The notes under the pieces were generated by a model. The model was not told the DNA's origin. It was given only the letters and a program-made list of their open reading frames with translations, and did not search any database. DNA of 64,000 nt, taken from assembly GCF_013167455.1 (NCBI RefSeq), contig NZ_CP038328.1; one strand, written 5' to 3'. The stretch comes from Escherichia coli O157:H7 (GTDB lineage Bacteria > Pseudomonadota > Gammaproteobacteria > Enterobacterales > Enterobacteriaceae). Below, one piece after another: positions 11,075 to 50,578 of this stretch. Numbering within the stretch: the first letter of the stretch is position 1; every line of letters starts with the position of its first letter. A program made the position numbers and the translations under genes.

Positions 11075-11113
11075 CAGTGTATTGGTAGCTAAAAAGCCAG
11101 GGGCGGTAGCGTG
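11075..11113 (+). promoter_or_regulatory. JUMPstart element with ops site (RfaH antitermination) in the wza leader
   Basis: CAGTGTATTGGTAGCTAAAAAGCCAGGGGCGGTAGCGTG; ops core GGCGGTAGCGTG at 11102-11113. Confidence 0.85.
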
Positions 11114-25646: not shown

Positions 25647-27017
25647 ATGAAAAAATTAACCTGCTTTAAAGCCTATGATATTCGCGGGAAATTAGGCGAA
25701 GAACTGAATGAAGATATTGCCTGGCGCATTGGTCGTGCCTATGGCGAATTTCTCAAACCGAAAACCATTGTGTTAGGCGGTGATGCCCGTCTCACCAGCG
25801 AAACCTTAAAACTGGCGCTGGCAAAAGGTTTACAGGATGCGGGCGTTGACGTGCTGGATATTGGTATGTCCGGCACCGAAGAGATCTATTTCGCCACGTT
25901 CCATCTCGGCGTGGATGGCGGCATTGAAGTTACTGCCAGCCATAACCCGATGGATTACAACGGCATGAAACTGGTGCGCGAAGGGGCTCGCCCGATCAGC
26001 GGCGATACCGGACTGCGCGATGTCCAGCGTCTGGCAGAAGCCAACGACTTTCCTCCCGTTGATGAAACCAAACGCGGTCGCTATCAGCAAATCAATCTGC
26101 GTGACGCTTACGTTGATCACCTGTTCGGTTATATCAACGTCAAAAACCTTACGCCGCTCAAGCTGGTGATCAACTCCGGGAACGGCGCGGCGGGTCCGGT
26201 GGTGGACGCCATCGAAGCCCGCTTTAAAGCCCTCGGCGCACCGGTGGAATTGATCAAAGTGCACAACACGCCCGACGGCAATTTCCCCAACGGTATTCCT
26301 AACCCGCTGCTGCCGGAATGTCGCGACGACACCCGCAATGCGGTCATTAAACACGGCGCGGATATGGGCATTGCTTTTGATGGCGATTTTGACCGCTGTT
26401 TCCTGTTTGACGAAAAAGGGCAGTTTATCGAGGGCTACTACATTGTCGGTCTGCTGGCAGAAGCGTTCCTCGAAAAAAATCCCGGCGCGAAGATCATCCA
26501 CGATCCACGTCTCTCCTGGAATACCGTTGATGTGGTGACTGCCGCAGGCGGCACCCCGGTAATGTCGAAAACCGGACACGCCTTTATTAAAGAACGGATG
26601 CGCAAGGAAGACGCCATCTACGGTGGCGAAATGAGCGCCCACCATTACTTCCGTGATTTTGCTTACTGCGACAGCGGCATGATCCCGTGGCTGCTGGTCG
26701 CCGAACTGGTGTGCCTGAAAGGAAAGACGCTGGGCGAACTGGTGCGCGACCGGATGGCAGCGTTTCCGTCAAGCGGTGAGATCAACAGCAAACTGGCGCA
26801 ACCCGTTGAGGCGATTAACCGCGTGGAACAGCATTTTAGCCGTGAGGCGCTGGCGGTGGATCGCACCGATGGCATCAGCATGACCTTTGCCGACTGGCGC
26901 TTTAATCTGCGCTCCTCCAACACCGAACCGGTGGTGCGGTTGAATGTGGAATCACGCGGTGATGTGCCGCTGATGGAAGCGCGAACGCGAACTCTGCTGA
27001 CGTTGCTGAACGAGTAA
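25647..27017 (+). CDS. cpsG: Phosphomannomutase (colanic acid copy)
   Basis: [29 protein letters not shown]...; phosphohexomutase active site TASHNP. Confidence 0.93.
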
Positions 27018-36543: not shown

Positions 36544-36577
36544 CACTGGTAGCGATTAAGCCAGGGGCGGTAGCGTG
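36544..36577 (+). promoter_or_regulatory. JUMPstart/ops element of the O-antigen operon
   Basis: CACTGGTAGCGATTAAGCCAGGGGCGGTAGCGTG; ops core GGCGGTAGCGTG at 36566-36577, about 60 bp upstream of the first O-antigen gene. Confidence 0.85.
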
Positions 36578-36635: not shown

Positions 36636-37418
36636 ATGAACAAAGAAACCGTTTCAATAATTATGCCCGTTTACAATGGGGCCAAAACTATAATCTCATC
36701 AGTAGAATCAATTATACATCAATCTTATCAAGATTTTGTTTTGTATATCATTGACGATTGTAGCACCGATGATACATTTTCATTAATCAACAGTCGATAC
36801 AAAAACAATCAGAAAATAAGAATATTGCGTAACAAGACAAATTTAGGTGTTGCAGAAAGTCGAAATTATGGAATAGAAATGGCCACGGGGAAATATATTT
36901 CTTTTTGTGATGCGGATGATTTGTGGCACGAGAAAAAATTAGAGCGTCAAATCGAAGTGTTAAATAATGAATGTGTAGATGTGGTATGTTCTAATTATTA
37001 TGTTATAGATAACAAAAGAAATATTGTTGGCGAAGTTAATGCTCCTCATGTGATAAATTATAGAAAAATGCTCATGAAAAACTACATAGGGAATTTGACA
37101 GGAATCTATAATGCCAACAAATTGGGTAAGTTTTATCAAAAAAAGATTGGTCACGAGGATTATTTGATGTGGCTGGAAATAATTAATAAAACAAATGGTG
37201 CTATTTGTATTCAAGATAATCTGGCGTATTACATGCGTTCAAATAATTCACTATCGGGTAATAAAATTAAAGCTGCAAAATGGACATGGAGTATATATAG
37301 AGAACATTTACATTTGTCCTTTCCAAAAACATTATATTATTTTTTATTATATGCTTCAAATGGAGTCATGAAAAAAATAACACATTCACTATTAAGGAGA
37401 AAGGAGACTAAAAAGTGA
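36636..37418 (+). CDS. wbdN: O-antigen glycosyltransferase (GT2)
   Basis: 260 aa; GT2 signature (VSIIMPVYNG, DDCSTD, DADD); AT-rich codon usage; first gene after galF in the O157-type order. Confidence 0.8.
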   Translation: MNKETVSIIMPVYNGAKTIISSVESIIHQSYQDFVLYIIDDCSTDDTFSLINSRYKNNQKIRILRNKTNLGVAESRNYGIEMATGKYISFCDADDLWHEKKLERQIEVLNNECVDVVCSNYYVIDNKRNIVGEVNAPHVINYRKMLMKNYIGNLTGIYNANKLGKFYQKKIGHEDYLMWLEIINKTNGAICIQDNLAYYMRSNNSLSGNKIKAAKWTWSIYREHLHLSFPKTLYYFLLYASNGVMKKITHSLLRRKETKK

Positions 37419-38599
37419 AGTCAGCGGCTAAGTTGATTTTTTTATTCCTATTTACACTTTATAGTCTCCAGTTGTATGGGGTTATCATAGATGATCGTAT
37501 AACAAATTTTGATACAAAGGTATTAACTAGTATTATAATTATATTTCAGATTTTTTTTGTTTTATTATTTTATCTAACGATTATAAATGAAAGAAAACAG
37601 CAGAAAAAATTTATCGTGAACTGGGAGCTAAAGTTAATACTCGTTTTCCTTTTTGTGACTATAGAAATTGCTGCTGTAGTTTTATTTCTTAAAGAAGGTA
37701 TTCCTATATTTGATGATGATCCAGGGGGGGCTAAACTTAGAATAGCTGAAGGTAATGGACTTTACATTAGATATATTAAGTATTTTGGTAATATAGTTGT
37801 GTTTGCATTAATTATTCTTTATGATGAGCATAAATTCAAACAGAGGACCATCATATTTGTATATTTTACAACGATTGCTTTATTTGGTTATCGTTCTGAA
37901 TTGGTGTTGCTCATTCTTCAATATATATTGATTACCAATATCCTGTCAAAGGATAACCGTAATCCTAAAATAAAAAGAATAATAGGGTATTTTTTATTGG
38001 TAGGGGTTGTATGCTCGTTGTTTTATCTAAGTTTAGGACAAGACGGAGAACAAAATGACTCATATAATAATATGTTAAGGATAATTAATAGGTTAACAAT
38101 AGAGCAAGTTGAAAGTGTTCCATATGTTGTTTCTGAATCTATTAAGAACGATTTCTTTCCGACACCAGAGTTAGAAAAGGAATTAAAAGCAATAATAAAT
38201 AGAATACAGGGAATAAAGCATCAAGACTTATTTTATGGAGAACGGTTACATAAACAAGTATTTGGAGACATGGGAGCAAATTTTTTATCAGTTACTACGT
38301 ATGGAGCAGAACTGTTAGTTTTTTTTGGTTTTCTCTGTGTATTCATTATCCCTTTAGGGATATATATACCTTTTTATCTTTTAAAGAGAATGAAAAAAAC
38401 CCATAGCTCGATAAATTGCGCATTCTATTCATATATCATTATGATTTTATTGCAATACTTAGTGGCTGGGAATGCATCGGCCTTCTTTTTTGGTCCTTTT
38501 CTCTCCGTATTGATAATGTGTACTCCTCTGATCTTATTGCATGATACGTTAAAGAGATTATCACGAAATGAAAATATCAGTTATAACTGTGACTTATAA
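37415..38599 (+). CDS. wzy: O-antigen polymerase Wzy
   Basis: 394 aa, very hydrophobic polytopic protein, AT-rich, GTG start overlapping wbdN. Confidence 0.75.
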   Translation: MKSAAKLIFLFLFTLYSLQLYGVIIDDRITNFDTKVLTSIIIIFQIFFVLLFYLTIINERKQQKKFIVNWELKLILVFLFVTIEIAAVVLFLKEGIPIFDDDPGGAKLRIAEGNGLYIRYIKYFGNIVVFALIILYDEHKFKQRTIIFVYFTTIALFGYRSELVLLILQYILITNILSKDNRNPKIKRIIGYFLLVGVVCSLFYLSLGQDGEQNDSYNNMLRIINRLTIEQVESVPYVVSESIKNDFFPTPELEKELKAIINRIQGIKHQDLFYGERLHKQVFGDMGANFLSVTTYGAELLVFFGFLCVFIIPLGIYIPFYLLKRMKKTHSSINCAFYSYIIMILLQYLVAGNASAFFFGPFLSVLIMCTPLILLHDTLKRLSRNENISYNCDL

Positions 38600-47079: not shown

Positions 47080-48450
47080 ATGAAATCTTTAACCTGCTTT
47101 AAAGCCTATGATATTCGCGGGAAATTAGGCGAAGAACTGAATGAAGATATTGCCTGGCGCATTGGGCGTGCCTATGGCGAATTTCTCAAACCGAAAACCA
47201 TTGTTTTAGGCGGTGATGTCCGCCTCACCAGCGAAGCGTTAAAACTGGCGCTTGCGAAAGGTTTACAGGATGCGGGCGTCGATGTGCTGGATATCGGTAT
47301 GTCCGGCACCGAAGAGATCTATTTCGCCACGTTCCATCTCGGAGTGGATGGCGGCATCGAAGTTACCGCCAGCCATAACCCGATGGATTACAACGGCATG
47401 AAGCTGGTGCGCGAAGGGGCTCGCCCGATCAGCGGTGATACCGGACTGCGCGATGTCCAGCGTCTGGCAGAAGCCAATGACTTCCCTCCTGTCGATGAAA
47501 CCAAACGTGGTCGCTATCAGCAAATCAATCTGCGTGACGCTTACGTTGATCACCTGTTCGGTTATATCAACGTCAAAAACCTCACGCCGCTCAAGCTGGT
47601 GATCAACTCCGGGAACGGCGCAGCGGGTCCGGTGGTGGACGCCATTGAAGCCCGATTTAAAGCCCTCGGCGCACCGGTGGAATTAATCAAAGTACACAAC
47701 ACGCCGGACGGCAATTTCCCCAACGGTATTCCTAACCCGCTGCTGCCGGAATGCCGCGACGACACCCGTAATGCGGTCATCAAACACGGCGCGGATATGG
47801 GCATTGCCTTTGATGGCGATTTTGACCGCTGTTTCCTGTTTGACGAAAAAGGGCAGTTTATCGAGGGCTACTACATTGTCGGCCTGCTGGCAGAAGCGTT
47901 CCTCGAAAAAAATCCCGGCGCGAAGATCATCCACGATCCACGTCTCTCCTGGAACACCGTTGATGTGGTGACTGCCGCAGGCGGCACCCCGGTAATGTCG
48001 AAAACCGGACACGCCTTTATTAAAGAACGTATGCGCAAGGAAGACGCCATCTACGGTGGCGAAATGAGCGCTCACCATTACTTCCGTGATTTCGCTTACT
48101 GCGACAGCGGCATGATCCCGTGGCTGCTGGTCGCCGAACTGGTGTGCCTGAAAGGAAAAACGCTGGGCGAAATGGTGCGCGACCGGATGGCGGCGTTTCC
48201 GGCAAGCGGTGAGATCAACAGCAAACTGGCGCAACCCGTTGAGGCAATTAATCGCGTGGAACAGCATTTTAGCCGCGAGGCGCTGGCGGTGGATCGCACC
48301 GATGGCATCAGCATGACCTTTGCCGACTGGCGCTTTAACCTGCGCTCCTCCAACACCGAACCGGTGGTGCGGTTGAATGTGGAATCACGCGGTGATGTAA
48401 AGCTAATGGAAAAGAAAACTAAAGCTCTTCTTAAATTGCTAAGTGAGTGA
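47080..48450 (+). CDS. manB: Phosphomannomutase (O-antigen copy; near-identical to cpsG at DNA level except the extreme 5' and 3' ends)
   Basis: 456 aa [29 protein letters not shown]...; high-GC body matching cpsG; the last ~20 codons are AT-rich and divergent (...[19 protein letters not shown]). Confidence 0.93.
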
Positions 48451-48689
48451 TTATTTACATTAATCATTAAGCGTATTTAAGATTATATTAAAGTAATGTT
48501 ATTGCGGTATATGATGAATATGTGGGCTTTTTTATGTATAACGACTATACCGCAACTTTATCTAGGAAAAGATTAATAGAAATAAAGTTTTGTACTGACC
48601 AATTTGCATTTCACGTCACGATTGAGACGTTCCTTTGCTTAAGACATTTTTTCATCGCTTATGTAATAACAAATGTGCCTTATATAAAA

Positions 48690-49650
48690 AGGAGAACAAA
48701 ATGGAACTTAAAATAATTGAGACAATAGATTTTTATTATCCCTGTTTACGATATTATAGCCAAAGTTGTATCCTGCATCAGTCCTGCAATATTTCACGAG
48801 TGCTTTGTTAACTGAATACATGTCTGCCATTTTCCAGATGATAACGACGTCATCGCAATTGATGGTAAAACACTTCGGCACACTTATGACAAGAGTCGTC
48901 GCAGAGGAGTGGTTCATGTCATTAGTGCGTTTCAGCAATGCACAGTCTGGTCCTCGGATAGATCAAGACGGATGAGAAACCTAATGCGTTCACAGTTATT
49001 CATGAACTTTCTAAAATGATGGGTATTAAAGGAAAAATAATCATAACTGATGCGATGGCTTGCCAGAAAGATATTGCAGAGAAGATATAAAAACAGAGAT
49101 GTGATTATTTATTCGCTGTAAAAGGAAATAAGAGTCGGCTTAATAGAGTCTTTGAGGAGATATTTACGCTGAAAGAATTAAATAATCCAAAACATGACAG
49201 TTACGCAATTAGTGAAAAGAGGCACGGCAGAGACGATGTCCGTCTTCATATTGTTTGAGATGCTCCTGATGAGCTTATTGATTTCACGTTTGAATGGAAA
49301 GGGCTGCAGAATTTATGAATGGCAGTCCACTTTCTCTCAATAATAGCAGAGCAAAAGAAAGAATCCGAAATGACGATCAAATATTATATTAGATCTGCTG
49401 CTTTAACCGCAGAGAAGTTCGCCACAGTAAATCGAAATCACTGGCGCATGGAGAATAAGTTGCACAGTAGCCTGATGTGGTAATGAATGAAATCGACTAT
49501 AATATAAGAAGGCGAGTTGCATTCGAATGATTTTCTAGAATGCGGCACATCGCTATTAATATCTGACAATGATAATGTATTCAAGGCAGGATTATCATGT
49601 AAGATGCGAAAAGCAGTCATGGACAGAAACTTCCTAGCGTCAGGCATTGC
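48690..49650 (+). mobile_element. Degenerate H-repeat (ISAs1-family) transposase remnant
   Basis: Frame-hopping translation gives MELK..., [155 protein letters not shown]-repeat-protein blocks interrupted by multiple stops and frameshifts. Confidence 0.8.
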
Positions 49651-49712
49651 AGCGTGCGGGCTTTCATAATCTTGCATTGGTTTTGATAAGATATTTCTTT
49701 GGAGATGGGAAA

Positions 49713-50378
49713 ATGAATTTGTATGGTATTTTTGGTGCTGGAAGTTATGGTAGAGAAACAATACCCATTCTAAATCAACAAATAAAGCAAGAATGTGGTT
49801 CTGACTATGCTCTGGTTTTTGTGGATGATGTTTTGGCAGGAAAGAAAGTTAATGGTTTTGAAGTGCTTTCAACCAACTGCTTTCTAAAAGCCCCTTATTT
49901 AAAAAAGTATTTTAATGTTGCTATTGCTAATGATAAGATACGACAGAGAGTGTCTGAGTCAATATTATTACACGGGGTTGAACCAATAACTATAAAACAT
50001 CCAAATAGCGTTGTTTATGATCATACTATGATAGGTAGTGGCGCTATTATTTCTCCCTTTGTTACAATATCTACTAATACTCATATAGGGAGGTTTTTTC
50101 ATGCAAACATATACTCATACGTTGCACATGATTGTCAAATAGGAGACTATGTTACATTTGCTCCTGGGGCTAAATGTAATGGATATGTTGTTATTGAAGA
50201 CAATGCATATATAGGCTCGGGTGCAGTAATTAAGCAGGGTGTTCCTAATCGCCCACTTATTATTGGCGCGGGAGCCATTATAGGTATGGGGGCTGTTGTC
50301 ACTAAAAGTGTTCCTGCCGGTATAACTGTGTGCGGAAATCCAGCAAGAGAAATGAAAAGATCGCCAACATCTATTTAA
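49713..50378 (+). CDS. wbdR: Hexapeptide-repeat acetyltransferase, probable GDP-perosamine N-acetyltransferase
   Basis: MNLYGIFGAGSYGRETIPIL...; C-terminal left-handed beta-helix repeats; last gene before gnd as in the O157 cluster. Confidence 0.8.
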   Translation: MNLYGIFGAGSYGRETIPILNQQIKQECGSDYALVFVDDVLAGKKVNGFEVLSTNCFLKAPYLKKYFNVAIANDKIRQRVSESILLHGVEPITIKHPNSVVYDHTMIGSGAIISPFVTISTNTHIGRFFHANIYSYVAHDCQIGDYVTFAPGAKCNGYVVIEDNAYIGSGAVIKQGVPNRPLIIGAGAIIGMGAVVTKSVPAGITVCGNPAREMKRSPTSI

Positions 50379-50578
50379 TGGGAATGCGAAAACACGTTCC
50401 AAATGGGACTAATGTTTAAAATATATATAATTTCGCTAATTTACTAAATTATGGCTTCTTTTTAAGCTATCCTTTACTTAGTTATTACTGATACAGCATG
50501 AAATTTATAATACTCTGATACATTTTTATACGTTATTCAAGCCGCATATCTAGCGGTAACCCCTGACAGGAGTAAACA

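Follow-up and report, generated by a model that had tools for sequence, protein, structure and literature searches.

The closest described system to the element analysed here is ISEc1, the H-repeat (H-rpt) of the Rhs elements of Escherichia coli K-12 (yhhI, ydcC, ybfD), which is characterized by a left inverted repeat (IR), a leader of ~144 nt with an AAGGAG ribosome-binding site (RBS), a single transposase ORF and a right IR placed directly after the stop codon. The sequence located between manB and wbdR in the O-antigen cluster of E. coli O157:H7 presents this same layout, and it is ~85-87% identical to ISEc1 in DNA and 73% identical to its transposase YhhI in amino acids. Unlike ISEc1, which has 1,291 bp and resides in Rhs elements, it is a remnant of 1,117 bp in an O-antigen operon, with a 165-bp deletion, five 1-bp indels, seven stops and the terminal CAGGG mutated at both ends. 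"A remnant H-repeat unit" has reportedly been described in the O157 O-antigen cluster by Wang & Reeves (1998, Infect Immun 66:3545; ref. 28 in PMC3715488), and the fossil studied here is the same object, from which it differs in nothing substantive. The remnant is already known, as RefSeq annotates it as a pseudogene and the account of the cluster published in 1998 reportedly includes it. What we add is an exact map of its lesions, the survival of both ends of the insertion sequence (IS) and a re-derived comparison with Salmonella O30.

An H-repeat remnant is also found in Salmonella enterica group D2, at the D1/E junction (Xiang et al. 1994, according to a passage of the review PMC3715488). 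As in O157, a decayed H-repeat lies there at the boundary of O-antigen blocks with different histories, and it has been proposed to mediate their joining. In the case of D2 both parental clusters are known and the recombinant origin is demonstrable, whereas for O157 the corresponding evidence is a different position of wbdR elsewhere; moreover, the D2 element is a Salmonella H-repeat, a type 63-64% identical to the O157 remnant. H-repeat relatives of the ISAs1 family (IS1358/rfbQRS) are present in the rfb regions of Vibrio cholerae O1 and O139, where they have been implicated in serogroup conversion, and one ISAs1-bearing V. cholerae O-antigen locus is perosamine-based. Within the family these relatives are distant ones, and they come from another genus.

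Location and identity of the H-repeat fossil

The DNA analysed is a window of 64 kb (64,000 nucleotides) which is the rfb region of E. coli O157:H7, and chromosomes of E. coli O157:H7 match the interval between manB and wbdR within it (48451-49712) with 100% identity. A previous reading of the sequence alone (the sequence-only reading) had described an AT-rich stretch of ~1.2 kb between these genes. The interval runs exactly from the base after the manB stop codon (manB, 47080-48450) to the base before the ATG of wbdR/perB (49713), and its G+C content is 36.3%, compared to 55-57% for most of manB. It contains the fossil of an ISEc1-like H-repeat at 48563-49679 (+ strand, 1,117 bp), in the same orientation as the operon. 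The features of the region are the following:

47080..48398, + strand: part of manB converted by the colanic-acid gene cpsG; ~96% identical to cpsG, G+C 0.55-0.57; outside the IS
48399..48450, + strand: AT-rich 3' end kept from the original, native manB; its last 51 nt differ from cpsG at 19 positions
48451..48562, + strand: 112-bp spacer from the manB stop to where the IS starts on the left; found only in genomes with the O157 cluster
48563..48582, + strand: degenerate left terminal inverted repeat (TIR), TAGGAAAAGATTAATAGAAA versus ISEc1 CAGGGAAAGATCATCAAAAG; 11 of 16 positions match in the first aligned block
48583..48700, + strand: left non-coding region of the IS with the transposase RBS AAGGAG, from the alignment to ISEc1
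48701..49669, + strand: pseudogene of the transposase, beginning with the ATG at 48701 and ending with the original stop codon (YhhI tblastn, NF033564, Pfam, RefSeq)
48740..48741, + strand: point at which 165 bp have been lost in frame (ISEc1 nt 184-348, aa 14-68)
49660..49679, + strand: degenerate right TIR, reverse complement CAATGCAAGATTATGAAAGC versus ISEc1 CAGGGCAAGATTACGAAAGC
49680..49712, + strand: 33-bp joint from the right end of the IS to wbdR, with the wbdR RBS GGAG at 49702-49705
49713..50378, + strand: wbdR/perB, GDP-perosamine N-acetyltransferase (RefSeq product name); intact ORF of 221 aa

As reference we used the K-12 ISEc1 of 1,291 bp, bounded by its inverted repeats (L002 1157-2447). 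DNA alignment showed that the fossil is colinear with ISEc1 bases 1-1291, with ~85-87% identity in the coding part, and an identity of ~85% over some 940 bp was found to thousands of ISEc1 copies. The sequence-only reading had noticed blocks of an H-repeat/ISAs1 transposase in shifted frames and proposed a TBLASTN analysis. This search, carried out with intact K-12 YhhI, the ISEc1 transposase, revealed significant homology in two frames, aa 68-132 being matched in one of them (77% identity, E 4e-30) and aa 118-378 in the other (61% identity, E 2e-101). Once the frame was repaired, the translation scored 240.7 bits against the NCBIfam model NF033564 (transpos_ISAs1, cutoff 70), compared to 412.4 bits for intact YhhI, and it was 73% identical to YhhI over 319 aligned codons. 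Chance or artefactual matches in AT-rich DNA have nothing in their favour and are rejected with E values of 2e-101 and 4e-30 and a score more than three times the curated cutoff. The repaired protein keeps the Pfam domain DDE_Tnp_1 (PF01609, 73.6 bits), while DDE_Tnp_1_assoc (PF13808), which is present in YhhI, was not detected in it because aa 14-68 are deleted; this loss fits a decayed member of the family and is no argument against an ISAs1 ancestry. RefSeq annotates a pseudogene of an "ISAs1 family transposase" at window positions 48738-49669, with flags for a frameshift, an internal stop and a missing N-terminus. These data support the assignment of the segment to a decayed H-repeat of the ISEc1 group, ISAs1 family, that lacks any functional ORF, as had been proposed from the sequence. 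A search of the literature for the locus tags Z3193, Z3192, ECs2842 and ECs2841 retrieved nothing relevant.

Furthermore, the feature is an end-to-end IS fossil and more than a transposase fragment, as leader, RBS, ATG and both degenerate TIRs are present. Window positions 48588-48742 align locally to ISEc1 (L002 1183-1341), with 25 of 26 bases identical at 48688-48713; the transposase RBS and start are kept (AAGGAGAACAAAATGGAACTTAAAA, ATG at 48701); and the homology reaches the last base of ISEc1 at 49679. The search for terminal inverted repeats that had been suggested recovered both ends, recognisable though degenerate: the IR cores (AAGATTA) are kept, 10 of 20 positions agree between the ends, and the terminal CAGGG is mutated to TAGGA on the left and to CAATG on the right. 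Between the manB stop and the IS, the 112-bp spacer harbors, at 48502-48555, a perfect inverted repeat of 10 bp (TTGCGGTATA...TATACCGCAA) and, inside it, a helix of 8 bp.

Lesions and decay of the element

The internal N-terminal deletion already noticed in the sequence corresponds to 165 bp removed in frame, that is 55 codons (aa 14-68) comprising most of the N-terminal DDE_Tnp_1_assoc domain. The five 1-bp indels are an insertion at 48714 and deletions at ISEc1 positions 540, 1083, 1172 and 1179. The many stops that had been reported amount to seven premature ones in the restored frame (48726, 48813, 48959, 49088, 49256, 49316, and 49528), and no uninterrupted transposase ORF is left, the longest stop-free stretch of the interval on the + strand being 74 codons. 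Mismatches to ISEc1 are distributed as 41/38/62 over the three codon positions, and the changed codons are 31 synonymous and 85 non-synonymous. This near-even spread, together with the excess of non-synonymous changes, indicates that most of the ~14% divergence was built up without selection on the protein. Moreover, as the outer CAGGG is mutated at both ends, mobilization of the fossil in trans by the other ISEc1 copies of the genome seems unlikely.

ISAs1 elements generate target-site duplications of roughly 8-10 bp. We looked for such a duplication here and the best 8-10-mer matches between the flanks of the IS were no better than those of shuffled sequences. Its absence could be due to decay or to a rearrangement that joined two different flanks, and it does not bar an ISAs1 ancestry.

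Distribution, age and origin of the element

The interval is present in full length and with at least 99% identity in 307 of 5,426 complete E. coli genomes, and none of the 307 genomes with the O157 cluster lacks it. The spacers on both sides of the IS (48451-48562 and 49680-49712) were not found outside these 307 genomes, other E. coli serogroups included; one of the 307 matches to the flanking spacers sits on a record labelled as plasmid. In PLSDB, the remnant was also found at 100% identity in a plasmid record of 438,722 bp from a pig-gut E. coli (NZ_CP114132.1, 136238-137354), which is probably a mislabelled chromosomal fragment or a very large chromid.

The O157 cluster also exists in a second type that is not H7, represented by strain STECUZB006. 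It contains the same remnant with the same indels and no length differences, which indicates that the element was already dead in the common ancestor of the known E. coli O157 clusters. Between both types the remnant differs by 8 substitutions over its 1,117 bp, or 7.2 per kb, in the range of the other cluster genes (3-11 per kb), and the 33-bp joint at 49680-49712 is invariant. Two of the seven stops are polymorphic between the H7 and the STECUZB006 types (48959, TAG versus TAT; 49256, TGA versus TGC, the latter being the ISEc1 codon), indicating that the fossil is still drifting. Within the cluster the two O157 types diverge by ~5 per kb, and this value jumps to 51 per kb in gnd.

Among E. 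coli chromosomes and plasmids we found no DNA copy closer to the remnant than ~85.7%. In a collection of 5.8 billion proteins the nearest intact transposases are those of the ISEc1 type from E. coli and Shigella (72-73%), followed by those of E. albertii (69%), Citrobacter (65%), and Salmonella (63-64%). As the nearest transposases are from E. coli and Shigella, the IS is of Escherichia type, and this comparison suggests that the IS event took place in the Escherichia lineage.

Position of wbdR and origin of the joint

The order of genes at the locus in E. coli O157 is wbdN-wzy-wbdO-wzx-per-wbdP-gmd-fcl-wbdQ-manC-manB-[H-rpt]-wbdR, from galF to gnd. In RefSeq terms, galF is followed by genes for a glycosyltransferase, wzy, a glycosyltransferase, wzx, rfbE/per, a glycosyltransferase, gmd, and fcl, and then by a GDP-mannose mannosyl hydrolase, manC, manB, the ISAs1 pseudogene, perB, gnd, ugd, wzzB, and his. 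In the window, the polymerase gene of the O157 O antigen, wzy (37415-38599), is intact and has no stop other than the terminal one. In 9.1_Anguil, a bovine strain from Argentina, the annotation of wzy (L001 4964-6149) indicates a frameshift, which could be a sequencing error or a rough/semi-rough variant.

A different arrangement was found in five contigs of Salmonella enterica O30, which belong to subsp. enterica and salamae (Urbana, Ago, and Nijmegen are among the serovars after which members of the WbdR homolog cluster are named). In them the order is gmd-fcl-NUDIX hydrolase-manC-manB-gnd-wbdR-[1.2-3.8 kb]-ugd-wzz-his, with a WbdR homolog of 72% amino acid identity placed on the other side of gnd. 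The gap that follows wbdR (wbdR-ugd regions L005 4146-8907, L006 3074-9144, and L008 8351-11825) contains a remnant of an IS5-family transposase (NF033580, 89.6 bits, below the cutoff), which in some strains is broken by an element whose orfA/orfB ORFs look IS3-like by eye; one strain has gained an IS110-family element in the gap as well. Many Salmonella O30 contigs break within the first few codons of wbdR and yield N-terminally partial proteins of 195-214 aa (L003 1-647; P0002 cluster), which hints at an assembly-breaking feature just upstream of wbdR in those genomes. Outside Salmonella, an enterobacterial contig with a WbdR homolog of 65% amino acid identity (L004, 1-2282) has the order gnd-wbdR-ugd. 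Another contig, with a homolog of 63% identity (L010, 1-1950), has the order wbdR-maoC-ugd, with a gene for a MaoC dehydratase in between; its upstream gene is not gnd by tblastn, and this contig supports only that wbdR adjoins ugd. Where L010 has the MaoC-dehydratase gene, L004 presents a seemingly degraded stretch. H-repeat sequences were searched for in the Salmonella O30, L004, and L010 loci, both as protein and as DNA, and none was found.

The sequence-only reading had left two possibilities side by side, a past insertion or a recombination junction. As both Salmonella O30 and L004 have wbdR beyond gnd, the comparative data favour a junction, a plain insertion being less favoured. The IS-associated rearrangement would have taken place in the Escherichia lineage and would have placed wbdR/perB between manB and gnd, so that the H-repeat would mark the left joint of the relocated segment; in relatives that share the O antigen, wbdR is found between gnd and ugd. 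The element would then have decayed neutrally, and it was already dead in the common ancestor of the known E. coli O157 clusters. The joint itself points the same way: the right end of the IS is located 33 bp upstream of the wbdR ATG, the similarity to the Salmonella sequence starts only 2-4 bp before the ATG, and the 33 bp show no similarity to the sequence upstream of Salmonella wbdR. Likewise, the spacers 48451-48562, 49680-49712, and 50379-50578 compared with Salmonella O30 intergenic DNA gave matches at the level of shuffled sequences, with the exception of ~45 bp upstream of gnd. We estimate at roughly 60% the probability that the ISEc1-type fossil is the trace of an IS-associated relocation of wbdR between manB and gnd, followed by neutral decay and with wbdR transcribed by read-through. 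That the IS caused the relocation is suggested by its place at the joint, and the direction of the move would follow from the gene order in three non-E. coli lineages. On the other hand, neither a target-site duplication nor another direct trace of a rearrangement is preserved. Salmonella wbdR adjoins IS debris of another family, and it might be its position that is the derived one.

This last point is part of the alternative that survives best, although we consider it rather unlikely: that an ISEc1 copy entered an ancestral manB-wbdR spacer and then decayed in place, the scar marking no rearrangement and the gnd-wbdR order of Salmonella being derived. The element is complete end to end, as a simple transposition would give, both spacers beside the IS are specific to the O157 cluster, and the IS5-family debris and the further IS that flank Salmonella wbdR mean that its location there could be secondary. 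However, wbdR adjoins ugd and not manB in all three non-E. coli lineages, and the end of the IS is only 33 bp from the start of wbdR, almost where the Salmonella homology begins. Furthermore, the target-site duplication expected from an insertion is not detectable, the flanks being at shuffle level.

Mosaic structure of manB

The mosaic 3' end of manB, which had been considered consistent with the IS scar, is real, and it stems from a separate event. Positions 47080-48398 are ~96% identical to the colanic-acid cpsG of the same strain (25647-27017; 49 mismatches in ~1,320 nt), and they are followed by a native AT-rich tail of ~52 nt, which differs from cpsG at 19 of 51 positions and also differs from the manB of Salmonella O30. 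Between the two O157 types, manB is the most divergent gene of the cluster (30.6 substitutions per kb). The conversion of this tract from cpsG explains that PGAP names the O-antigen manB "cpsG". Gene conversion of manB by cpsG has been proposed previously, and Iguchi et al. credit it to Samuel et al. (2004) in a passage of PMC3158064. The sequence comparison matches such a conversion, an event separate from the IS; a tie between both is unnecessary, as conversion from the strain's own cpsG explains the mosaic.

Expression of wbdR across the scar

As the sequence-only reading had pointed out, the remnant separates wbdR from the rest of the operon, and it does so by a 1.26-kb spacer behind which wbdR is an intact ORF of 221 codons. 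An ops element (GGCGGTAG) is found on the + strand at 36566-36573, in the galF-wbdN leader, upstream of the first gene of the cluster. Two other exact ops cores (GGCGGTAG) are located on the + strand at 10515-10522 and 11102-11109, within the colanic-acid region or close to it; a total of three could easily arise by chance, since 13 of 100 shuffles reach this number. Terminator-like matches within the spacer are limited to weak stems of 5-6 bp, with weak hairpins at 48613-48630 and 49230-49246. The hairpin that follows manB does not fold better than shuffled sequences (z = -1.1) and has no U-tract, and no Rfam match was found in the spacer region. In addition, 81% of 80-nt windows are richer in G than in C, so that Rho would find poor loading sites. 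Promoter-like sites are not enriched between 48300 and 50700 (11 versus 8.0 +/- 2.9 expected); one sigma-70-like candidate, TTCACA-17-TAAAAT at 48989-49017, matches at 10 of 12 positions. RNA polymerase modified by RfaH suppresses Rho-dependent polarity in operons of this kind. With an ops leader, neither a strong terminator nor promoter enrichment, and the anti-polarity activity of RfaH, read-through is the most economical model. wbdR would most probably be transcribed from the ops/RfaH-dependent promoter upstream of wbdN, by polymerases that read through the largely untranslated 1.26-kb scar, and an internal promoter, such as the candidate at 48989-49017, may exist. The WbdR protein has been detected in O157:H7, with an APEX value of 261 compared to 4,107 for ManB and 6,027 for ManC, roughly 15-20-fold lower in a fraction where ManB and ManC are abundant (PMC3210124, Table 3). 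This lower abundance is compatible with partial polarity and could also be due to weaker translation or to a separate weak promoter.

A wider proposal would combine an effect of the scar on expression with the history of the cluster: the scar would act as an attenuator or weak internal promoter keeping PerB far less abundant than the GDP-sugar enzymes encoded upstream, and the H-repeat event, by bringing wbdR to the galF side of gnd, would have created a single galF-gnd O157 cassette that spreads among E. coli lineages by homologous recombination in its flanks. We regard this combination as improbable. Even fainter is the prospect that the remnant has been domesticated as a regulatory spacer, kept as an internal promoter or as a partial terminator/attenuator setting the dosage of PerB. 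The sigma-70-like match, the two weak hairpins, and the scarcity of WbdR relative to ManB and ManC (PMC3210124) would be in agreement with such a role, as would the fixation of the remnant, which is colinear in all the O157 clusters examined. However, hitch-hiking accounts for this fixation, given that the cluster spreads as a block, and at 7.2 substitutions per kb the remnant is no more conserved than the neighbouring genes and spacers. The two polymorphic stops correspond to continuing neutral drift, and neither the number of promoter-like sites, nor the fold of the post-manB hairpin, nor the Rfam search sets the region apart. Read-through from the operon promoter across a neutrally decaying element is the explanation that we prefer.

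Implications for O-antigen cluster assembly

Finally, the fossil is a marker of how an O-antigen cluster was assembled, as a tailoring gene which relatives carry outside the galF-gnd interval is found inside it in E. coli, beside a dead IS of Escherichia type. With this arrangement all the O157-specific genes are located between galF and gnd and can move together. This fits a spread of the cluster as a block, in agreement with the low divergence inside it (~5 per kb) compared to gnd (51 per kb), and such a spread is described in a passage of PMC3158064. Moreover, the locus constitutes a natural test case of how an essential downstream gene is expressed across ~1 kb of untranslated DNA in an RfaH-dependent operon.
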